Part shown: piece after piece, positions 4,196 through 55,083 of the stretch
Position numbering within the stretch: position 1 is the stretch's first letter
How the letters are laid out: the number at the start of each line of letters is the position of its first letter
Virus record (IMG/VR): IMGVR_UViG_3300026484_000390
Location: 4,491-68,490 of that record
Source of the DNA: a virus
Reading direction: 5' to 3' (one strand)
Length of the DNA stretch: 64,000 nucleotides
Position numbers and translations under genes: made by a program
Notes under the pieces: model-generated
The model's database searches: none
What the model saw: the letters and a program-made list of their open reading frames with translations, nothing else
Told to the model about the DNA's origin: nothing

Positions 4196-5053
4196 AGTAA
4201 TTATGTAAGTATTGAACCAGTTGTTAAAAAGAAATTTGGAACTGATTATTTAAAAACAACAGAAAGAATAAGAATTACAGAATTTATTGAAAACTATATC
4301 AACAAAGTTTCGTTACCTTTAACTTATGATGCTCTTAATAATATTTTAAGCAAATCTCATAATGCATATTTACCAGAAAAACTGGTTGAAGACCCTGAAG
4401 TAATTTGTGATAACTTTATATCGATTGCTCCTAAAATGTACTTCGCTAGAAAGTGGTGGGATGAAGGATTAACCTTAAGTGCACCTAAGTTAAAAATTAC
4501 TGGATTAAGCACAATTAGAAGTACTACCCCAAAATATTATAGAAAAGAACTTGCTTCAGCTATGGATATTTTAATAGATGGTGATATTCCTAAAGTGATT
4601 GAATACATAGAAACAGTTAGAGAAGGAACTATGACACAAGCACCTGAAGATATTGCAATTAACCAAGGTGTATCTAGTTTGGATTATACCTGGGATGAAA
4701 ATATTAAAAAATTCAGAAGATGGACAGGAGAGAAATACTTAGGAGCACCAGTAAATTCTAGAGCTTGTCTTACTCATAATCTGTATATTGAAAAAAATAA
4801 ATTAACTATTAAAGATATTGAACCAGGAGATAAAATTTCTTTTTTATATATGAAAACTCCTAATCCTACCTTTAATTCAAGTAACGCTTTTGGATTTAGA
4901 GATACGAAAGTATTTGATGGAGAACTTAGAAAATACATAGATCGCAATTTAATGTTTGAAAAAGGCTTTGAGACACCAATTAGACTTATAACAGATCCGT
5001 TAAACTGGGATTTAACTCCTAAAGACGAACAAATTGATGACGATGAATGGTAG
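4079..5053 (+). CDS. 43: Split intein C-fragment (39 aa) plus DNA polymerase B C-terminal fragment
   Basis: VYDIEVEDNHNFFANDICVHN|S then PKMY, KITGL..RSTTP thumb motifs. Confidence 0.95.
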   Translation: MIETEEFIVEDMGVQEQWVYDIEVEDNHNFFANDICVHNSNYVSIEPVVKKKFGTDYLKTTERIRITEFIENYINKVSLPLTYDALNNILSKSHNAYLPEKLVEDPEVICDNFISIAPKMYFARKWWDEGLTLSAPKLKITGLSTIRSTTPKYYRKELASAMDILIDGDIPKVIEYIETVREGTMTQAPEDIAINQGVSSLDYTWDENIKKFRRWTGEKYLGAPVNSRACLTHNLYIEKNKLTIKDIEPGDKISFLYMKTPNPTFNSSNAFGFRDTKVFDGELRKYIDRNLMFEKGFETPIRLITDPLNWDLTPKDEQIDDDEW

Positions 5054-10211: not shown

Positions 10212-11753
10212 ATGGAGAAACAAATGAAAAAATATAGTGATTTAATCTTTGAAGCAGCAAATAAAACAAAATTGGATATTAGTATTCAAGCAGCAGGAAA
10301 ATTTTTAACTTCAAATAAAAGAATAGAAGATTTTTTTAATGCTGATGTTATTGTTGAACACAAGACAGATGGTGTAAAAATTACAGCAATGAAAATAGCA
10401 AGTAATGGAACTTTAGATGATTGGATTATTGCTTATAAGGGTAATATTTTATATGAGGGTGAATTTGAATTTGCACCAAAAACAAATGTAAAGAAAAGAT
10501 CAATTGGAGCTAGTCAATTTAGTTTTGTTGTTGAACACTTTGCCGATATTGCTAAAGATACTAAAAAAATCCCAGTAGGTACAGAATTGTTTGTTGAATT
10601 CCTTATGAATAAACCAACATTAAGTTCTAATTATACAAGAAAACACGGTATGATTTTAATCGCTCATACCAAATCTTCTTATAAAGTTAAAAATGGTTTA
10701 TTATTAACAAAACCAGGAATTTTTGATATTTCACATAGAGATGAATACGCTAAAATGGCAAATTTAGATGTACCAGCATTATTATTTAAAGGTAGAATGG
10801 GAACACAAAAAGATTTTGAAAGCGGAATTATTAATACAAAACTTAAGAGTCTATTTAACGAACGAAGTAATGCTATGAATTGGATCACAGTTGAGATTTT
10901 ACTTGATGATATAAGAGAGTTATTTCTTGATGTCGAGAGCCGGTATGGCGGGAAAGAAGAAGGCGTCGTAATTAAATATGATAATGTTATACTTAAATTT
11001 CAACAGGATTATCAATTGGATCAAGAAGCAAGAAGACAAATTAAACTTAAATATCAAGACGAAAATCCAGAAGTTGAAACTCAATATTGGAATAATGTTA
11101 GGCTAGCTGCAATGGAAATTACAGGTGAGATTCAAGTAAAACCAAAATCTGATTTAAAAGATTTAGTAAAAGAATTATCTCAAGGCTTAAAAGATTATAA
11201 ATTAAACTTTAAACATCCCAAAAAAGATAAAACAAATATCGAAGATGATATTCAACTTACTGCTAAACAAATTATTATGAGAAAACTTAAGGGAAACAAT
11301 AATGCTTTAGTTCTTGGAAAATTTAGAATCTTAACAAAGGCGCATGCTGGTATAATTAAAGAAGGTTTGAAAAAATTTGATGGTGTTGTAGTGGCATTAA
11401 TTAGTTCAAAAGAAACAAAAAGTACAAAAGAACTTAGAAGAAAAATGTTGGAATTAACATTCGGTGATAAAATTGAAATATTTGAAGCTACTTCAGGTAA
11501 TCTTATGACACTTATGAATAGAACAAATGAAAATATTAACTGGATTATGGCTGGTTCTGATAGGGTTAAAGCTTATGAAAAAATGTTAGAAAGAAATAAA
11601 GATGTTAAGGTATATGAAATACCGAGGACAGATGAAGATATTTCAGCTTCAAAAGTTATAGCAGACATTACAAATGAAGCTTATTTTAAAAAAAATACAC
11701 CTAAAGAAATACATTCATTATATAATGAAATATTAGAAGTCTATAAAGATTAA
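10212..11753 (+). CDS. Fusion of ATP-dependent ligase-type adenylyltransferase domain and HxGH-like cytidylyltransferase domain
   Basis: EHKTDG (motif I), FVEF, EEGVVIK, LKF; C-terminal GKFRILTKAH, AGSDR, ISASKV. Confidence 0.7.
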   Translation: MEKQMKKYSDLIFEAANKTKLDISIQAAGKFLTSNKRIEDFFNADVIVEHKTDGVKITAMKIASNGTLDDWIIAYKGNILYEGEFEFAPKTNVKKRSIGASQFSFVVEHFADIAKDTKKIPVGTELFVEFLMNKPTLSSNYTRKHGMILIAHTKSSYKVKNGLLLTKPGIFDISHRDEYAKMANLDVPALLFKGRMGTQKDFESGIINTKLKSLFNERSNAMNWITVEILLDDIRELFLDVESRYGGKEEGVVIKYDNVILKFQQDYQLDQEARRQIKLKYQDENPEVETQYWNNVRLAAMEITGEIQVKPKSDLKDLVKELSQGLKDYKLNFKHPKKDKTNIEDDIQLTAKQIIMRKLKGNNNALVLGKFRILTKAHAGIIKEGLKKFDGVVVALISSKETKSTKELRRKMLELTFGDKIEIFEATSGNLMTLMNRTNENINWIMAGSDRVKAYEKMLERNKDVKVYEIPRTDEDISASKVIADITNEAYFKKNTPKEIHSLYNEILEVYKD

Positions 11754-11831: not shown

Positions 11832-12584
11832 ATGAAATTTAAAGATTATTTAAACGAAAAAACTGCGATGACAGGTTTTAAACTAAGTAGATTAATTGGT
11901 TCTTTATCTATCCCTGTCAGTACAAATATGATGGATAGATTAGGATATAGTTACGAAGATGAAGCTTATCATGTTACTGATATTCAATATTTAGACAGTC
12001 TTGTTAAGTTACAGGGTAAAAAGAAACAAATTTCTGCTTTCACTAAAGGCGGAAGTGAATTGATGAGACTGCCTTCTAATCCTACAGTTTTAGTTAAACT
12101 TGAAGGCAATATTGTAATTGATTCCGCAAGTGATATGTGGACCTTATTAGATAAACAAGGTAGGAGATGGATAACATTAGCCGATAAATCAGATGATATT
12201 GGAACAGAATATAGTGAAAAGTTAAAGTTTTTTATTAAGGGAATATTAAATAAAATAGTTAAAAAATTAGGTTATAATGAACTAGAGGCTCAAACATCAT
12301 ATGATTCAGAATTATCTAAAATGGCAAAAAAAGATAGAGCTATTTTGTATAAAGAATATATAAAAGAAATCGAAAAATATCTTGAAAAGGATGGTTATAA
12401 ATTACTTAATAAACATTTAAAAGAAAATATTTCTTATAGTTATAATGAAGTTGTGCTTAATAATTTTAAGATATTGGGAGCATTTTCGTTGGATAACGAT
12501 TATAAAAAACAAGAAATTAAGGATTCGGGAATTAATTATCTCGGAGTAATGTCTAGACTAGACTTGGCAAATATAGGGAAATAA
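11832..12584 (+). CDS. Putative head-packaged protein, possible ADP-ribosyltransferase fold
   Basis: MKFKDYLNEK leader; AYHVT...ISAFT...YNEVVL spaced like the ART H-S-E triad. Confidence 0.4.
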   Translation: MKFKDYLNEKTAMTGFKLSRLIGSLSIPVSTNMMDRLGYSYEDEAYHVTDIQYLDSLVKLQGKKKQISAFTKGGSELMRLPSNPTVLVKLEGNIVIDSASDMWTLLDKQGRRWITLADKSDDIGTEYSEKLKFFIKGILNKIVKKLGYNELEAQTSYDSELSKMAKKDRAILYKEYIKEIEKYLEKDGYKLLNKHLKENISYSYNEVVLNNFKILGAFSLDNDYKKQEIKDSGINYLGVMSRLDLANIGK

Positions 12585-12593
12585 ATCCTATAT

Positions 12594-13844
12594 TTAAAAC
12601 CTATAGCTAAAAACAATTTTAGTTATTTCAGTTTTTTTCCTTTGTATTCCAATATATTCTTCTTGTGATAATGAAGAACCTACACCACCAATTTGTAGTG
12701 CTTCTTTAGACTCAAGATAGGCATAATTTATTTGCATAAAAGTACTTTTACCAAGTCTGTAACCATAATTAATAAAATAGCTATTATTTCTAATATCGAA
12801 TAATTGTGTACAATTTCCTGTATAAGGTGCCCCCACATTACTAGACAACCATCCTCCTTTAGTGTGAAACCATTCGAAATTAATAAAACTTTCATTCCCA
12901 AATGTTTCAAAATCTTTTCTAATTCCCAATAAATTTGCTGCACTTAGTTGTATCTTACCAGTACCGAAATTAAAACTACTTGGTGCTGTTTTTACCATCT
13001 TTGGGTCAATTTCAGAGTCGGCTAACATTTCAAATTTGGCATTATTTGATAAATTCTTAATTCTCGAAAAACCTATACTATCATAAATACTCCATCCTGA
13101 AAATTCTGAGTCATCATATACAATCCCAAATCCAATAGTGTTACTCTCTGCTATTTTATGTTTAGTATAATAAGTATTAGCATAAATATATTCTGTTGTA
13201 GCGTGAATCTTTCCTTTAGAAAACTTATGAATAACTGCCATACCTTTAGTATTATCAATTAAATGTGGAATGGCATGCATCCCGCTTGGAATGTTCAAAG
13301 TATTAGTTTGAGAAAAATTTACAAGTATTTTATGATTTTCATTTATTTTAAATTTAAAAAATATACCCAAAGGGTCTATATCACTCAGGATACTTAATCC
13401 TTCTCCGTCACTCATATAGTCTTTTGTATATTCCATAGGAAAACCATTACCCATAGGCACTATTCCCATTCCCACTAAAATCTTTGGTGATAAATTATAA
13501 GATATATATAAACCCCTAAAAAATAAATCCTGGCTGTTAAAAAGTTTATGAAAATTGGCATTTTCATTATTTCTACTTGATTTTGTACCTGTTTTATAGG
13601 CATAAGGGACGGCATTAAATCTGAAATTTTTATAATGATATTTTATTTTCATTTCAAGACTTATATAGTTCCCTGTTTCTTCGTAGCTTTTTTTATTTAA
13701 TAAAGTTTTTTTAATATTAAATATTTTATCATTAAATTCGCCAGAAAGTCTCCAGTTATTTTGTTCTTTGATTTCATTAGCATTTAATCCACTTAATATA
13801 CTTAATGTTAATATTATTCCTAATATTTTACTTTTAAAATTCAT
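12594..13844 (-). CDS. Outer-membrane beta-barrel/porin-like protein
   Basis: Cleavable signal peptide (..LSGLNA|NE), amphipathic aromatic-rich strands, C-terminal FSYRF BAM signal. Confidence 0.75.
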   Translation of the reverse strand: MNFKSKILGIILTLSILSGLNANEIKEQNNWRLSGEFNDKIFNIKKTLLNKKSYEETGNYISLEMKIKYHYKNFRFNAVPYAYKTGTKSSRNNENANFHKLFNSQDLFFRGLYISYNLSPKILVGMGIVPMGNGFPMEYTKDYMSDGEGLSILSDIDPLGIFFKFKINENHKILVNFSQTNTLNIPSGMHAIPHLIDNTKGMAVIHKFSKGKIHATTEYIYANTYYTKHKIAESNTIGFGIVYDDSEFSGWSIYDSIGFSRIKNLSNNAKFEMLADSEIDPKMVKTAPSSFNFGTGKIQLSAANLLGIRKDFETFGNESFINFEWFHTKGGWLSSNVGAPYTGNCTQLFDIRNNSYFINYGYRLGKSTFMQINYAYLESKEALQIGGVGSSLSQEEYIGIQRKKTEITKIVFSYRF

Positions 13845-14140
13845 TATTCTATACCTCTTTCATATTTAATGGTTTTGTTTTGATATTTTTTTCTAAAGAA
13901 GTTCAAAATCATTTTTCTTTCTTCATAATTTATAACAAAATTATAATCTTTAGTTTTTTCTTTTGAATTGAAAACCCTTATCCAACCTTTATAAGACTTA
14001 GTGTCAATATCCATTTTATTTTCTCTAAAAATTCTAACAACTTTGTTATAAGTAAAAAATTCCAATTCTTTCGGTATGGCAGTAGTTTGAAGGAAGATTA
14101 TTATAATTAATATAATTGGTATTTTATTTATTTTTTTCAT
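13844..14140 (-). CDS. Small exported or membrane-anchored protein
   Basis: MKKINKIPIILIIIIFLQTTA signal-like N-terminus; translationally coupled to the porin gene. Confidence 0.65.
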   Translation of the reverse strand: MKKINKIPIILIIIIFLQTTAIPKELEFFTYNKVVRIFRENKMDIDTKSYKGWIRVFNSKEKTKDYNFVINYEERKMILNFFRKKYQNKTIKYERGIE

Positions 14141-14150
14141 ATCTCCTCCA

Positions 14151-15428
14151 TTATTTTATTAATATTGGCAACCTTAATTCAATTGTAGTTCCTTTATTGC
14201 TTGAGGAAATCAATTCAATTTCTCCGCCAGCATTATTAATAATAAGTTTATTCAAATACATACCGTTACCTCTTATACCACTATCTGATTTTTTTGTACT
14301 AAAATTAGCCGAAAAAATCTTCTTTTGTACTTTTAACGGTATCCCTTTACCATTATCTATAATTCTAAAATATAATGTATTATCTTCTACTTTATTAAAT
14401 AAAATAAAAATTTTAGAAGCATTTGCCTCAAGTGAATTTTTAAAATGATTTAATAAAATGCTAAGAAGATCGGCATTCTTAAGTTTGTCAGTTCCTATTT
14501 TATAATTATCTAATTTTTGGTCAATCTTATATTCAAAATTTGTATTACTAATATTTATAATTTTAAAACCTCCATCAATAATATTTTTAAGAGATTTATT
14601 TCCATTACTATACCTAAGATGTTTAAAACCTTTCATCTTTTCAAGAACGGCGTATATTTGTTCTGATGAAGTTTTAATAAATTCAAAATCCTTATTTAAT
14701 TTTACTAATCGTTTATTTCTTTGAATCCTCTCTTCAGGCAGAGTAGTTATTTCTTCAGTTATTATATATTCCTCTATTAAAAAGGTACTTAATTCATTAT
14801 GTATTTTTTCTATTTTATTATCAATTACTTCTAAAGGGGTATTTAATTCATGATGTATATTTTCGGTTATATTAATCATACTTTTGTTAGCTAATAAGGC
14901 TTCAGAACCAGCATTTATTAAGATTGATTCTTCTTTTTCTTTTTTAATAGCGTTAAATAACGGCCCTAAATATATTATTATTAAAAAGGGCAACAAAAAT
15001 GCCATAGTTTTTAGATATTCCGTAATGTTTTTCCTTGTGTTTAAAGCATAATAAGATTTAGAAGTATTGTTATAAATATTTAATTCATATTTATCGTTTA
15101 TATAAAGAACTTTAGTAAGTTTAGAAAAAATATTGGTATTTCGAGAACCCACTTTAAGGTGGCCTTTTTCATCCGGAATAAATTGTTTATTATTAAAAAT
15201 ATTAGTAACTTTAGTACAAGCAACTATTTTACATAATTGCTCTCTATCGATTTCTCCATATTCTTTAATATTATTGTCTATTTGATTATTTATATAATAA
15301 GCGTGATCGTTAAAAGCCATAGCAAAACTGGCAAAAGCAACAGCATTTATTAAAAATAAAAAGATTAAAATATTTAGAATATACTTTCTAATTATTGAGA
15401 AAGCATCCTTTAGATTGATATCATTCAT
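14151..15428 (-). CDS. Membrane sensor histidine kinase
   Basis: Two TM helices flanking a periplasmic domain; H-box IHHELNTPL, N-box NHFKNSLEA, G1 DNGKGIP, F-box IFSANFSTK, G2 GNGMYL. Confidence 0.93.
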   Translation of the reverse strand: MNDINLKDAFSIIRKYILNILIFLFLINAVAFASFAMAFNDHAYYINNQIDNNIKEYGEIDREQLCKIVACTKVTNIFNNKQFIPDEKGHLKVGSRNTNIFSKLTKVLYINDKYELNIYNNTSKSYYALNTRKNITEYLKTMAFLLPFLIIIYLGPLFNAIKKEKEESILINAGSEALLANKSMINITENIHHELNTPLEVIDNKIEKIHNELSTFLIEEYIITEEITTLPEERIQRNKRLVKLNKDFEFIKTSSEQIYAVLEKMKGFKHLRYSNGNKSLKNIIDGGFKIINISNTNFEYKIDQKLDNYKIGTDKLKNADLLSILLNHFKNSLEANASKIFILFNKVEDNTLYFRIIDNGKGIPLKVQKKIFSANFSTKKSDSGIRGNGMYLNKLIINNAGGEIELISSSNKGTTIELRLPILIK

Positions 15429-15505
15429 TAGTGTTCTGTCCTTACATTTAAATATAACATAATCACTAATGAAAAAACTACTATACTACGGAACATTTTT
15501 TTCAT
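15428..15505 (-). CDS. Unannotated 25-aa hydrophobic peptide MKKMFRSIVVFSLVIMLYLNVRTEH
   Basis: AAGGAG RBS, late promoter 20 nt upstream, stop overlaps the kinase ATG (TAATG). Confidence 0.7.
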   Translation of the reverse strand: MKKMFRSIVVFSLVIMLYLNVRTEH

Positions 15506-15524
15506 AAATAACTCCTTTTGTAAA

Positions 15525-15532
15525 TATTTATA
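15525..15532 (-). promoter_or_regulatory. Late promoter TATAAATA for the peptide-kinase-porin operon
   Basis: TATTTATA on the plus strand. Confidence 0.65.
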
Positions 15533-15545
15533 ATTAAGGCTTTTC

Positions 15546-15570
15546 TTAAATACTGCTATGCAGTATTTAA
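15546..15570. terminator. Perfect 11-bp hairpin between the receiver gene and kinase operon
   Basis: TTAAATACTGC-TAT-GCAGTATTTAA. Confidence 0.55.
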
Positions 15571-15588
15571 AAATAGAATTAAAAAGTT

Positions 15589-16266
15589 TTACTTCTTAAA
15601 TATGCATTTTAAAATATAATCCCGTCTTGTTTTTATATCCATGCTAGTTTTAAATAATATTTTCTTTTTAATATCACCACCAGTTATTTTCTTAAATTGA
15701 TTAATCAATTTTTCATTAGACTTAATATAGGGATTTAAGTTATTACCCGTATAAAACAAATATTCTAAATCCGGATTATTACTATACATCATATTAAATG
15801 CATCAACACCCGTATATTTAATATTTCCTTTTTCAGTCATTTTAGAACCGCCTAATGTAATATCAATAATAGCCCATTTAATATTTAAATTAGATAATTT
15901 CTCATATAATAATTTAAGAGTAAAAGCAGCATGAACCCCACTAATTGTTAAAAGATTAACTTCTTTTAAGTTAATTATGCCTTCTTCGCTAAAGTATTCC
16001 ATATCATCTTTAAGAAAACTTACCATTCCTTCATTATCATCTATTATTAAAATAGTATCTAATTTTGGATTATATTCTGGAAGTTCAATCGCATTTTCAC
16101 ATTCATGAACAAATTGACCCTTTTTACTACATAATTTTCTTAATGGACATTCATTACAATTAACATCAATAGTAATTTTATCATCTCCAAATAAAGCATC
16201 CGCAGTCATTTCTTCATCCACTAATTTTTCTTCTTTCTTAAACACATTTTTTAAAAATTTAAACAT
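15589..16266 (-). CDS. Response-regulator receiver protein with N-terminal Cys cluster and no DNA-binding output domain
   Basis: ILIIDDNEG, WAIIDITL (phospho-Asp), FYTG, ILFK; CNECPLRKLC...HEC. Confidence 0.8.
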   Translation of the reverse strand: MFKFLKNVFKKEEKLVDEEMTADALFGDDKITIDVNCNECPLRKLCSKKGQFVHECENAIELPEYNPKLDTILIIDDNEGMVSFLKDDMEYFSEEGIINLKEVNLLTISGVHAAFTLKLLYEKLSNLNIKWAIIDITLGGSKMTEKGNIKYTGVDAFNMMYSNNPDLEYLFYTGNNLNPYIKSNEKLINQFKKITGGDIKKKILFKTSMDIKTRRDYILKCIFKK

Positions 16267-16277
16267 CTGTTTTCTCC

Positions 16278-16739
16278 TTATAATAATTTTGATAGTTCTT
16301 TGATTATTTCAATAAACATATCTGGAGCCAATACAGCCCCAGCTGCTAATGTGATAACTGCCAGCGCTGTTAATATCATTTTTACATTTTTCATAATGTA
16401 ACCAGTACTTTTAACTTTTTCCCATATTGTCATATTATCAAAAGTGTCAGTTTTAATTTCCTTTTCTTCTATTAATTTTTGAACTAACGTTAGTTTGTTT
16501 CTGATTGATTCATTAAAAGAGTCAATAACAATCTCAGCAAATATTGTTTGATTAGTTTCCAACTTATCATTAATAAAAACCATAAATTGCAATAATTCTT
16601 TATGATCTGGATATTTAGCACTTAAATCTATTATTGTATTATGAAATTCCTTAGTATTTGTACCAAGTGCTTCAAGCTGGGTATTAAAATCTTTATGTAA
16701 TTGTTCTAATGATATTTCCATTCTTTTAAAATCTTTCAC
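16278..16739 (-). CDS. Coiled-coil protein with a C-terminal transmembrane helix
   Basis: ILTALAVITLAAGAVLAP; GGAGG RBS; late promoter at 16759. Confidence 0.65.
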   Translation of the reverse strand: MKDFKRMEISLEQLHKDFNTQLEALGTNTKEFHNTIIDLSAKYPDHKELLQFMVFINDKLETNQTIFAEIVIDSFNESIRNKLTLVQKLIEEKEIKTDTFDNMTIWEKVKSTGYIMKNVKMILTALAVITLAAGAVLAPDMFIEIIKELSKLL

Positions 16740-16758
16740 ATTAGCCTCCTTTTAAAGT

Positions 16759-16766
16759 TATTTATA
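16759..16766 (-). promoter_or_regulatory. Late promoter TATAAATA
   Basis: TATTTATA on the plus strand, 20 nt upstream of the 16739 start. Confidence 0.65.
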
Positions 16767-40712: not shown

Positions 40713-40734
40713 TTTTAATCTCCTTTTAAGTTAT

Positions 40735-52011: not shown

Positions 52012-53289
52012 ATGAAAGATGAGAATTTTTTCAAGTCCGAATTATCTAAAAGAAAAGTTAAGGACGCAAATAAAATACTAGAATACATATTTTTTTGTAT
52101 TTCTAAAAAAGATCTAAAAACTAACAAGTATATTAAAGGAGTTACTGAACATCATCATATTTTACCCTCTTCCCTCTACCCAGAATATAGTAATCTCAAA
52201 AAGAACGCGTGGAACGGTGTACATCTAACATATGAAGACCATTATAAAACTCACAGTATTTTGGTAGAAGCCCTATCAGATAACAAAATGCTAATGGCTT
52301 GGTTCAATATGGGTAATATTAAAGATTTACATAAAGAAGGATGCTATAAAGAAAGTAAAGAGCGTGCCTTGGAATATTTAAGTAAAACTGTTGTGGCTAG
52401 GCCATTAGGATCATCAGAAAAATATAGAAGAATACTTTTAGAAGATTTTTACAAAGGTAAGTGGGAAATACCCACAGCCAATATGGTACCAGTTTCAAAC
52501 AAAGAAGGACTTAGATTTTCTGTACATAAAGATTATTACCACATCAATAAACACAACCTAAGCCCTTTTATAGGCACAAAAATGCCTGTTCGGGAAGTTG
52601 GGACAGATAAAAAGTTATCTGTATCTTCAGAAGAATTCAAATCAGGCAGATATATAGCTTTATCTAAAGATAGGGTGGGAGCTATAGCAGAAGATGGTTC
52701 TAGGGCTATTGTATCTTCTGAAGAATATGCTAATGGAAATTACTCTCATGCTAATTCTGGAAAAACATCTTGCTTAGATTTAGAAGGTAACAAAGTAACA
52801 GTATCAACAGATGAATACAGAAAAAACAGAAACAAATATATTCATCCTAATGAAGGCAAGATATCAGTCTACAAAAGGGACACATTAGATCAAGTGTTTA
52901 TTACTACCGAAGAATATATCAAAAACAAGAGCAAATACAAAATACCAACTGAAGGAACGCTTACAGCTTATAACGATAAAGGCATAAAAACCAGAATTAC
53001 TAAAGAGGAATATTACAGCAGAGGATACTCTCATTCCAACTCCCTTTTATTGACAGCTAGAGATATCTTAGGAGAAAGTAAAGCGATTCAAGTTACTAGG
53101 GAATTTTATCTGGCGAACAGAAACTACATCCAAAATTCTTCCAAATATGTGTATCTCTATAACGGTCAATATTATAGGTCGGCAGATTTAGTAGAGCTCT
53201 CAGGAAAAGTAAATGTTCCCAGAAAATATAAAAAAGTTAAAATATCAATAAAAGAATATACCGCTATATTAAGTAAGAAAACAGTATAA
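52012..53289 (+). CDS. HNH homing endonuclease with tandem C-terminal DNA-binding repeats
   Basis: EHHHILP..VHLTYEDHYKTH; repeated ..VS.EEY..Y.H.N.GK units. Confidence 0.85.
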   Translation: MKDENFFKSELSKRKVKDANKILEYIFFCISKKDLKTNKYIKGVTEHHHILPSSLYPEYSNLKKNAWNGVHLTYEDHYKTHSILVEALSDNKMLMAWFNMGNIKDLHKEGCYKESKERALEYLSKTVVARPLGSSEKYRRILLEDFYKGKWEIPTANMVPVSNKEGLRFSVHKDYYHINKHNLSPFIGTKMPVREVGTDKKLSVSSEEFKSGRYIALSKDRVGAIAEDGSRAIVSSEEYANGNYSHANSGKTSCLDLEGNKVTVSTDEYRKNRNKYIHPNEGKISVYKRDTLDQVFITTEEYIKNKSKYKIPTEGTLTAYNDKGIKTRITKEEYYSRGYSHSNSLLLTARDILGESKAIQVTREFYLANRNYIQNSSKYVYLYNGQYYRSADLVELSGKVNVPRKYKKVKISIKEYTAILSKKTV

Positions 53290-53319: not shown

Positions 53320-55083
53320 ATGAACAATACCAAACACAAATTAAAATTGACCTATATCAGCTCTGCTATTACATCATTCGCGAGAGCGTCTGGAATTGCA
53401 GAATCAGGGAAGAAAATAGGTATGGAAAAAGAATATCGTAGTTTGATGCAAGATTTACTATATCGAATAGATGGTTACAGCGTTAATTGTGACCACGGCA
53501 CTCTATGGAATGCTCTTACAGAAAAAGGCCATAAAAAAATATTAAAAGGGTTAAACGACCCCCAACGAAAACAGATGATTGTTATGGCCGATTCTGGAGG
53601 TCTCCAACAAATTACCTTAGGTATTAATGTGACAGATGAAGGAAGAAAGGAAATCTTTAGGCGACAAGCGGAATTTAGTACGCACGCTATGAACTTTGAC
53701 GAGATGCCAGTTTTGGTAAATGAAGCTCTTCGAGACAAATTCGCATCACAAGGAAACGGTGATCAAGGACTTAAGCTAAATCATAGTATCAAATATTTTA
53801 TTAAAGAGTTGAGATATGACAGAGGAAGAGAGTCAGGTTTTAACATTAAAGAGCAAATTGATATCATTATAGATTTTAAGAAAAATAACCCAGAAAAAGA
53901 AGTAACTAAAGTTTTAACAATTATACAAGGTTGGGATATCGAAGATTATAATGAATATGCTAGAGGGGTTTATTCGGTTTTTAACGAAATGGAAGAAGCA
54001 GAGAGAGAAAAATATTATGAACATATTGGTGGGATTTCACTAGGAACTTCAGGTATCATTTCTTACTTTAGAATGTTTGATTTATATTGTAGGGCACCTA
54101 TGGATTTAACTAACGTACCTGAAAGATTTAGAAGTTTTATTCATATTCTAGGATTAGGCGGCAATAATAAAAGTGGAGTTTTATTTGCTTTACAAGATAA
54201 TTTTTTCGGAAAAGAAGTTCATTATACTTATGACTCAACATCTCTAACAGCCGCGAGCACTTTTGGTAAACATATAATTTTAGAAGAGAAAACAACTTAC
54301 AAAAAAGGTGAGCAAATAACTTTTATGAATCAGAGATCGCAACAATTAGGAAGAGATATTAGTGATAAGACTGTAGATTTTATGAAAGAAGTTCAAGACG
54401 AATATGCTGATTTATTACAATTACACTTAGGTGATAGTAAAATGAGTGCAGATGATTTTAGAAATAAATATAGCCCCTGGAGAGATGACGGTTGTGCCGG
54501 ATTAAAATCTTTTGAAGATAAATTTGATGGGAAAGACGGATTAATAGCTAGAGAACAATACAATAATGCAATTTCTTTAAATGCATATTTGCATTTTGCT
54601 TTAGAAGCAAAAACTTTTATGAGATTATTGGACGATATGAAAAGAGGGGATTTTAATTCTATTTCAGATAATGAGTACAGAAAAGCAATGGAAAAATTAT
54701 TTACAATTAAAACTTATGACGAATATATGAAAAGAAGAGGGGAATTTAAAGCTATCCTTGGATATATCCCAAATCCGGGTTCTGAAGAAGCTGAATGGTA
54801 TGAGAAGACAAATCGCCCTTTAGAAAATAGTAACGAGAAAAGAAAGAGTACTATGACATATTGCCAAACAGTTGAAGAATTTAATGAAATTTGCAGAAGC
54901 TCTGTTATAGACCCTTTAGACGATTTTATGGGAGATGAAGATCCTACAGAAAATATAGAAAAAATAACTAGGGAGTATGAAAATAGTATTGATATTCCAG
55001 TTAAATTGACAGCTTCTCAACGGGTTAAAGCTGCGGCAGATATTATTTTAAGTAGACACAATTTAGACCCAGAGGAGTGGTAA
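53320..55083 (+). CDS. TGT-fold base-exchange enzyme, DpdA-like (paralogue 1)
   Basis: ADSGGLQ, MNFDEMP, IIQG, GISLG, IHILGLG, YDSTS in TGT order. Confidence 0.75.
   Translation: MNNTKHKLKLTYISSAITSFARASGIAESGKKIGMEKEYRSLMQDLLYRIDGYSVNCDHGTLWNALTEKGHKKILKGLNDPQRKQMIVMADSGGLQQITLGINVTDEGRKEIFRRQAEFSTHAMNFDEMPVLVNEALRDKFASQGNGDQGLKLNHSIKYFIKELRYDRGRESGFNIKEQIDIIIDFKKNNPEKEVTKVLTIIQGWDIEDYNEYARGVYSVFNEMEEAEREKYYEHIGGISLGTSGIISYFRMFDLYCRAPMDLTNVPERFRSFIHILGLGGNNKSGVLFALQDNFFGKEVHYTYDSTSLTAASTFGKHIILEEKTTYKKGEQITFMNQRSQQLGRDISDKTVDFMKEVQDEYADLLQLHLGDSKMSADDFRNKYSPWRDDGCAGLKSFEDKFDGKDGLIAREQYNNAISLNAYLHFALEAKTFMRLLDDMKRGDFNSISDNEYRKAMEKLFTIKTYDEYMKRRGEFKAILGYIPNPGSEEAEWYEKTNRPLENSNEKRKSTMTYCQTVEEFNEICRSSVIDPLDDFMGDEDPTENIEKITREYENSIDIPVKLTASQRVKAAADIILSRHNLDPEEW

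Follow-up and report, generated by a model that had tools for sequence, protein, structure and literature searches.

A candidate two-component cassette of large uncultured phages, putatively late and envelope-sensing

To our knowledge, the general view of virulent phages is that they follow a preset course in which little of the environment is sensed, and none of the exceptions that we know of (T4 lysis inhibition, arbitrium, and borrowed quorum-sensing receptors) is a complete two-component system owned by a phage. The DNA analyzed here, a 64-kb stretch (positions 4,491 through 68,490 of IMG/VR record IMGVR_UViG_3300026484_000390; herein the window) out of a 68.5-kb viral metagenome contig with an estimated completeness of ~31%, contains a block of six minus-strand open reading frames (ORFs; 12594 through 16766) that a first-pass annotation, made from the letters alone, had described as a two-component system encoded together with an outer-membrane β-barrel. 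Does such a block belong to the phage, are its signaling parts intact, and what might a phage use them for?

All six ORFs were found at the coordinates claimed, and every element of the cluster (anchored protein, receiver, 25-residue peptide, kinase, exported protein, and barrel) is present. The parts come from known superfamilies, namely class I histidine kinases, CheY-like receivers, and 16-strand porins, and the families to which the kinase, the receiver, and the membrane partner belong are almost confined to viral contigs. It is very probable that the block is a real, functional two-component cassette of a phage. Taken as a whole, the statement that the cassette is phage-only, made late in infection, and senses the envelope, with lysis timing only as the leading guess for its purpose, is one toward which we lean slightly. 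If it is true, the cassette would provide a testable handle on the late-infection decisions of uncultured large phages, and would combine compact receiver signaling without DNA binding with a phage-built pore; some versions would carry the sensing chain out to the outer membrane.

Proteins encoded by the cassette

HK425 (14151 through 15428, minus strand; 425 residues) is, as judged from its sequence, a HisKA-like (class I) sensor histidine kinase of the inner membrane with intact catalytic boxes, in agreement with its earlier description as a complete membrane kinase. The HATPase_c domain (PF02518) is matched at 1.3e-15 (58.2 bits; cut-off of 26.4), and hydropathy places transmembrane segments at residues 20 through 38 and 143 through 161, with a periplasmic domain of ~100 residues between them. 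The H-box, HHELNTP (residues 192 through 198; H192/H193), fits the HisKA pattern H-E-x-x-T/N. Boxes H, N, F, and G2 are kept in 8/8 sequences and G1 in 7/8; N327, D358, F372, and G387 through G389 are invariant. A profile built from eight kinase relatives matches solved kinase catalytic domains, with KinB (3d36) best at 9.2e-12 and HK853 entries at 2.3e-8; the NCBIfam models WalK, RppB, and PieS align to HK425 from residues ~186 to 190 onward, at scores far below their cut-offs. The H-box recurs in 20 of 21 kinases of the related loci described below, and the periplasmic cysteine pair (C66-x4-C71 in HK425), the best-conserved feature of its domain, is found as CxxxxC in 19 of the 21, with or without the exported protein and the barrel. 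The relative that has no G1 box (locus L005, 7980 through 10596) shows a deletion in the alignment at this point, and its barrel is divided between two ORFs (9463 through 9852 and 9862 through 10596); these defects point either to a decaying cassette or to errors in sequencing.

Upstream of the kinase, REC225 (15589 through 16266, minus strand; 225 residues) has no match in Pfam (E up to 0.1), PHROG, or NCBIfam. With 47 relatives as input, AlphaFold gave a model (mean predicted local distance difference test [pLDDT] score of 84.5) that contains a five-stranded α/β domain from residue 70, with the strand and helix order, (βα)5, that is found in receivers. The best solved-structure matches listed by Foldseek are all receiver domains or receiver-containing fusions; Spo0F comes first (E = 2.2e-5, probability 1.00), and RcsB, NtrC1, CheY, and PorX are also present, with E values between 2.2e-5 and 7e-4 and target-normalized TM scores of up to 0.72. 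Five residues, D76, D77, D135, T173, and K206, are invariant in 47/47 aligned relatives; in the model, D76/D77 close strand 1, D135 and T173 stand at the ends of strands 3 and 4, and K206 comes after strand 5. Based on the modeled fold, the structural matches, and these residues, REC225 is a true but highly divergent CheY-like receiver (domain boundaries ~68 through 225), and the DD/D/T/K set reported as intact in the first-pass annotation is borne out. The divergence takes the form of a hairpin insertion following D135 and of a variable, poorly modeled N-terminal extension of ~65 residues; in the wider family this extension commonly carries cysteines, at least four of them in 37 of the 47 relatives and none in 7. 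The model contains no output domain, neither DNA-binding nor enzymatic, and REC225 is thus a stand-alone receiver.

The first gene of the block encodes cc153 (16278 through 16739, minus strand; 153 residues), a predicted tail-anchored helical protein. Its GTG start is preceded by AGGAGG and backed by alignment to 26 relatives. A single hydrophobic segment spans residues 119 through 137; the ~115 residues before it are presumably cytoplasmic, and a short amphipathic tail follows. This topology, with one transmembrane segment close to the C terminus, is presumably unlike that of T4 T or RI. All 27 homologs are metagenomic and none has a Pfam domain; cc153 itself gave no significant match in Pfam, PHROG, or NCBIfam, and a look-up in the ESM Atlas returned sub-threshold leads only. 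We rejected a role as an HPt or Spo0B-like phosphotransferase: the only conserved histidine, H32, is replaced in 3 of the 27 relatives.

On the 3′ side of the kinase lie the two predicted exported proteins, both of which had been claimed in the first-pass annotation. The smaller, sp98 (13844 through 14140, minus strand), has a hydrophobic N terminus (residues 4 through 22; signal or anchor) and an invariant family motif, G52-W53-x-R55. It could be assigned to no described family; the ESM Atlas look-up remained below threshold, the best score being 0.90 to a 94-residue cluster in which Campylobacterota is the commonest phylum. The larger, barrel416 (12594 through 13844, minus strand; 416 residues), is predicted to be an outer-membrane protein with a 16-strand porin fold. 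A signal-like helix (residues 2 through 19, followed by ...LNA/NE), read from the sequence and the model, forms its N terminus, and the protein ends in YRF; the terminal F416 is at least 90% conserved among 70 sequences. The model (pLDDT of 91.8) has 16 long strands and superimposes on 16-strand porins with Z scores of 21 to 23.5 over ~280 to 300 residues at 7 to 12% identity. The value of 23.5 belongs to OmpM1, VhChiP, and PorB, with a root-mean-square deviation of 3.3 over 281 aligned residues for OmpM1. The best-conserved stretch of the sequence falls within the long loop that joins strands 5 and 6, the site of the porin constriction loop. By sequence, barrel416 has no Pfam porin match, and a barrel profile found nothing significant among solved structures; 7 of 70 aligned family members match the bacterial family DUF3373 (PF11853; best, 6.2e-9), barrel416 itself not being one of them. 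A barrel profile retrieves 118 representatives among 1.8 billion proteins. Some barrel relatives sit in metagenome-assembled genomes (MAGs) labeled Campylobacterota.

The hydrophobic 25-residue ORF between receiver and kinase (pep25; 15428 through 15505, minus strand) is real as an ORF: a Shine-Dalgarno sequence precedes it, and its stop and the start of the kinase overlap in TAATG. No conserved counterpart was found in the related loci, and in four of these (L004, L005, L007, and L010) there is no space for one, so that pep25 is not a conserved part of the cassette and is doubtful. It may be a leader ORF or may encode a small membrane peptide.

Distribution, promoter-like boxes, and neighboring genes

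Integration of the block into the phage, rather than contamination with host DNA, had been claimed at the outset, and our data agree. Contigs from two other runs (label hydrothermal vent metagenome; perhaps a single campaign) cover the block and both of its junctions: X3 aligns over 4945 letters at 10838 through 15782 with 67 differences (~98.6% identity) and over 834 letters at 16276 through 17109, and X2 aligns over 1556 letters at 12402 through 13957. The plus strand carries almost all genes of the AT-rich window (GC of 0.24 to 0.33), and the cassette block forms a minus-strand island; between 13 and 17 kb GC and AT skew are reversed and GC content is unchanged, the cassette (0.24 to 0.28) matching the rest of the window. 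Relatives of the receiver number 84 in 5.8 billion proteins, all of them environmental and none with a Pfam domain. A scan of 185,579 species genomes (one per species) with the receiver pattern gave one match, a 5.8-kb MAG contig that bears anchor, receiver, and kinase and is therefore probably a mis-binned phage fragment. Neither receiver nor barrel has a relative among 50,697 deposited phage records, where the kinase gave just three weak, partial matches; a megablast search of deposited phages with the entire block returned no match. A near-identical host locus and a chimeric assembly are both contradicted by the bridging contigs and by this distribution.

Three of four viral-contig scans yielded loci, and with the window and the MAG contig these make up a set of 23 profile-scored loci across which the order of the cassette is kept, at kinase identities of 26 to 67%. 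The kinase is present in 22 of the 23 (the contig of L019 ends first) and the receiver in 21 (it is cut in L030 and absent from L042); kinase accompanies receiver in 20 of the 21 receiver-bearing loci, and in the other the contig ends first. Directly upstream of the receiver, 20 of the 23 loci carry an anchor-type ORF, 14 recognized by profile and 6 by architecture (101 to 172 residues, one transmembrane segment). The small exported protein occurs in 12/23 loci, always immediately 3′ of the kinase, and the barrel in 10/23, always after the exported protein. These counts define a core trio of anchor, receiver, and kinase, to which exported protein and porin are an optional add-on. Carrier phages span 96 to ~220 kb. 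The complete genomes among the carriers include one of 194 kb, which has a weak match to the T4-type polymerase and no barrel anywhere, and two of 126 kb and 96 kb with terminal repeats. The latter two have no match to the T4-type polymerase, so that the cassette is shared across phage backbones. In locus L008 (10395 through 13550) an array of 23 tRNA genes follows the kinase and exported protein in place of the barrel.

The two units of the cassette each begin 19 nt after an exact TATAAATA box, which we take to be a T4-type late promoter; the first-pass annotation had put the distance at about 20 nt. One box (16759 through 16766, minus strand) precedes the GTG start of cc153 and the other (15525 through 15532, minus strand) the ATG of pep25. 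A hairpin with a 9-bp stem and a 3-nt loop, read from the sequence, lies 3′ of the receiver stop (15548 through 15568, minus strand); no T run follows it, and a terminator scan did not flag it. The window has 32 copies of TATAAATA where 24.6 are expected, and 32 is reached in 11 of 100 shuffles; overall, the box is not over-represented. Its placement is nonrandom: 11 of the 32 copies stand 26 to 33 nt before a same-strand ORF start (ORFs of at least 50 residues), a count that tops all 56 permutations of its letters (runner-up, 8 of 37). By this measure the spacing is 27 nt before both cassette units and also before a head-protein-like gene (39816 through 40712, minus strand; phrog_138, 8.1e-28), which is preceded by one of the eleven placed copies and serves as an internal control for calling the boxes late promoters. 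Based on this shared placement, the cassette is putatively made late in infection. Of 12 related loci, 6 likewise have an exact copy 23 to 34 nt ahead of the opening gene of the cassette or of the ORF that immediately precedes this gene.

The head-protein-like gene is itself a lone minus-strand gene amid plus-strand genes. In the 300-nt gap that separates it from the next plus-strand gene, TATAAATA occurs at 40732 through 40739 (minus), 40991 through 40998 (plus), and 40997 through 41004 (minus).

Neighboring genes were scanned at 12 loci, the window included. At three of these the cassette is flanked by genes for a holin, spanins, or an endolysin and follows them on the strand that they share. 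The gene directly upstream in L024 encodes a holin (PF11351, 3.5e-12, 47.4 bits with a cut-off of 24.8; phrog_3427, 7.2e-29). In L025 the cassette is directly preceded by an ORF with two transmembrane segments, an Rz-like i-spanin (1.6e-5), and a lipoprotein that weakly resembles o-spanins (0.0041), and in L040 the second gene upstream encodes an endolysin (phrog_465, 4.7e-34). The x205 membrane protein of L010 was also considered as a lysis gene; it is dissimilar to the L024 holin, and L010 was not counted. In the window, the divergent neighbor (16823 through 17998, plus strand) encodes a ClpX-like AAA+ ATPase (AAA_2, 1.7e-22) with a weak match to the ClpX zinc finger. Such a gene adjoins the cassette in only 4 of the 23 loci, the window and its closest relatives L004, L005, and L006. 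The complete genome G001 has ClpX- and ClpP-like genes, the former ~120 kb or more from the cassette; the complete genome G002 carries the cassette and neither ClpX nor ClpP; and ClpP was not found in the window contig, itself ~31% of a genome. Two genes from the cassette, on its other side, the window encodes a 513-residue protein (10212 through 11753) that belongs to phrog_27149 (1.1e-131), a family confined to phages, and carries a C-terminal cytidylyltransferase-like (NMNAT-like) domain; in L004 and L023, too, a relative of this protein is encoded close to the cassette.

Possible roles of the cassette

We propose that HK425 would read a periplasmic or envelope cue, for example the redox or thiol state of its CxxxxC pair or a solute let in by the phage pore; sp98 is a possible co-sensor, and pore and sp98 together could supply or relay the ligand. 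Gene adjacency and the intact residues suggest that the kinase phosphorylates D135 of REC225. A receiver without an output domain would be expected to act by binding a partner, and phospho-REC225 may contact a protein at the inner membrane, most plausibly cc153, instead of acting on transcription. A non-transcriptional output at the envelope is, in our estimation, reasonably probable. The process under control could be the triggering of a holin or a delay resembling lysis inhibition; late promoters, late-gene location, and the adjacency of lysis genes in other backbones make lysis timing the leading guess, and as a specific assignment we hold it tentatively, as the best supported of those available. 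A fully drawn version, a private phosphorelay in which porin and periplasmic protein cue the thiol-pair kinase and the receiver gates an anchor that acts on the holin, making up a two-component analog of T4 lysis inhibition that travels as a cassette among unrelated phage backbones, is doubtful.

Several observations weigh against this proposal. We infer phosphotransfer and every later step from the sequences. On the signaling side, the DHp region of HK425 has no Pfam HisKA match at E values up to 0.1; PF00072 is matched by only one of the 47 receiver relatives (E = 0.0028), REC225 itself failing the Pfam model; and receiver profiles made from 8 or 47 relatives retrieved no significant receiver among solved structures, one response regulator scoring 0.18. 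On the output side, the suggestion that the 153-residue protein be tested as a holin or antiholin found no backing in homology searches: cc153 matches no described holin, antiholin, or other family, the Pfam and PHROG lysis families included. The lysis-timing role suggested earlier draws contextual support from the lysis genes at three of the 12 scanned loci; none stands next to the window cassette, whose neighbors are the ClpX-like gene and an uncharacterized gene. The remaining matched neighbors are tail or virion-structural genes, so that the link to lysis could simply reflect location in a late region. The TATAAATA box is a word that is frequent by chance in DNA of 27% GC. Finally, the cassette is not uniform. 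L042 (4396 through 7896) has kinase, exported protein, and barrel with no detectable receiver or anchor upstream, and L040 (6415 through 7219) has two canonical single-domain receivers (PF00072, 2.1e-9 and 8.8e-5) right after the kinase, besides the divergent receiver upstream, which suggests that outputs may differ between phages. The place of receiver and anchor in L042 is taken by a 185-residue Pro/Thr-rich ORF.

The presence of a pore invites a different reading, in which pore and sensor track or tune the uptake of solutes, the homeostasis of the envelope, or the redox or energy state of the host during late infection, keeping the cell productive without timing its lysis. OprB, OprP, chitoporin, and Omp32 are among the top barrel matches, the periplasmic CxxxxC could sense redox or thiol state, the source is labeled a hydrothermal vent metagenome, and porin-annotated proteins occur in other uncultured phages. 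The trio nevertheless persists where the pore (13 of 23 loci) or the exported protein (11 of 23) is absent, the complete 194-kb genome has no barrel at all, and the receiver has no DNA-binding domain with which to reprogram host genes; we regard such a host-physiology module as rather unlikely. The envelope location of the components and their apparently late expression, as read from sequence, would also suit a sensor of superinfection or competitors, in which the kinase detects envelope damage or a second phage, the output excludes it, and the barrel may alter receptor availability. Movement among unrelated backbones that probably share hosts is, moreover, a frequent trait of conflict systems. 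Classical exclusion genes, however, are typically expressed early or borne by prophages, and no nuclease- or protease-like effector domain is present in the cassette; we regard exclusion as quite unlikely. Superinfection sensing and phage-phage signaling, both suggested in the first-pass annotation, are speculative.

Three further readings concern the receiver and the origin of the block. A receiver resembling CpdR or RssB could feed substrates to the divergent ClpX-like unfoldase under control of the kinase, and the ClpX-like gene abuts the cassette in the window and three other loci, with both ClpX- and ClpP-like genes in G001. This adjacency is confined to the four closest loci and so probably reflects shared ancestry, whereas ClpX lies far off in G001, G002 has neither gene, and the partial window contig has no ClpP; an adaptor for proteolysis is improbable. 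Divergent receiver domains (cREC) of jumbo phages are, according to PMC7824862, tied to NAD+/ADP-ribose (ADPr) enzymes. REC225 might by analogy be a phosphoesterase-like domain acting on NAD+- or ADPr-derived nucleotides and not a phosphotransfer protein, a suggestion to which the nearby protein with the NMNAT-like domain lends some color. According to the same paper, cREC never occurs with histidine kinases, whereas the receiver described here is accompanied by one in nearly every locus, and we consider this reading very improbable. As for mis-assembled host DNA, or a host operon captured recently without a role in the phage, the kinase catalytic domain does resemble those of ordinary bacterial kinases, and the barrel family has its Campylobacterota MAG labels and DUF3373 members; the junction-bridging contigs, unchanged GC, synteny over 23 loci, and single match in 185,579 genomes already contradict such an origin, which is hardly credible.

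The closest known counterparts of the signaling pair are KinB-Spo0F, from the phosphorelay that governs sporulation in Bacillus, and HK853-RR468 of Thermotoga: the kinase profile is nearest to KinB, the receiver model is nearest to Spo0F among the matches listed, the receiver stands alone, and the H-box fits HisKA. In contrast to these systems, the phage receiver and DHp region are too divergent for Pfam, the receiver has a hairpin insertion and usually a four-cysteine extension, and the phage proteins occur in phages only; no downstream phosphotransferase was found, H32 of cc153 not being invariant. With T4 lysis inhibition (holin T, antiholin RI, and RIII) the cassette would share the logic of a late envelope sensor that tunes holin firing, and in some phages it lies beside holin, spanins, or endolysin, but no kinship in sequence or fold was found and T4 relies on direct binding of periplasmic proteins, not on phosphotransfer. 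LiaFSR and BceRS-AB similarly couple a small membrane-anchored protein genetically to a kinase and receiver. The phage accessory protein differs from theirs in preceding the receiver and in having a large helical cytoplasmic domain, with no homology detected; the phage kinase has a real periplasmic domain, and the phage receiver has no DNA-binding domain.

Comparison of the remaining parts gives a similar picture. Compared as a modeled monomer fold, barrel416 shares with the 16-strand trimeric porins (OmpM1, PorB, VhChiP, Omp32, and OmpF/C) the fold, the C-terminal aromatic residue, and the loop between strands 5 and 6, but it is phage-encoded, apparently co-transcribed with a kinase, and only 7 to 12% identical to them. 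CpdR and RssB resemble REC225 as receivers without a DNA-binding domain, here beside a ClpX-like gene in four loci, but this adjacency is not conserved and a complete genome carries the cassette without ClpX or ClpP. The Clostridioides phage phiCDHM1 carries agr quorum-sensing genes and likewise has a membrane histidine kinase; that set is host-like and belongs to a temperate phage, whereas the families described here are phage-only and their carriers are apparently virulent large phages. Full-text literature searches, vent viruses included, listed no paper on a kinase-receiver cassette of this kind owned by a phage, and the terms kinase, two-component, response regulator, porin, and outer membrane do not occur in the main text of PMC11531552, on Sulfurimonas phages.

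The phage and the rest of the window

The family-B DNA polymerase of the window is ~30% identical to gp43 of Campylobacter myoviruses. Together with the primase, RNA ligases, homing endonucleases, and the head-protein-like gene, it identifies the window phage as a distant T4-like phage. Based on the affinities of the polymerase, the MAG labels on relatives of the barrel, and the DUF3373 matches in the barrel family, its host is probably a member of the Campylobacterota, the evidence from these sequences being weak.

The polymerase is apparently split over two genes within 556 through 5053. An 808-residue ORF (556 through 2982) aligns with the polymerase profile over its N-terminal and central part, and a 324-residue ORF (4079 through 5053) over its C-terminal part (phrog_262, positions 581 through 845). 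Between the two halves lies an unrelated ORF of 349 residues (3028 through 4077; phrog_22677, no function assigned), with a TATAAATA box in front of it. The window contains no tRNA genes. Toward its other end, the ORF at 52012 through 53289 is HNH- or homing-endonuclease-like, and the ORFs at 53320 through 55083 and 60018 through 61496 are paralogs, both belonging to the uncharacterized family phrog_10773.

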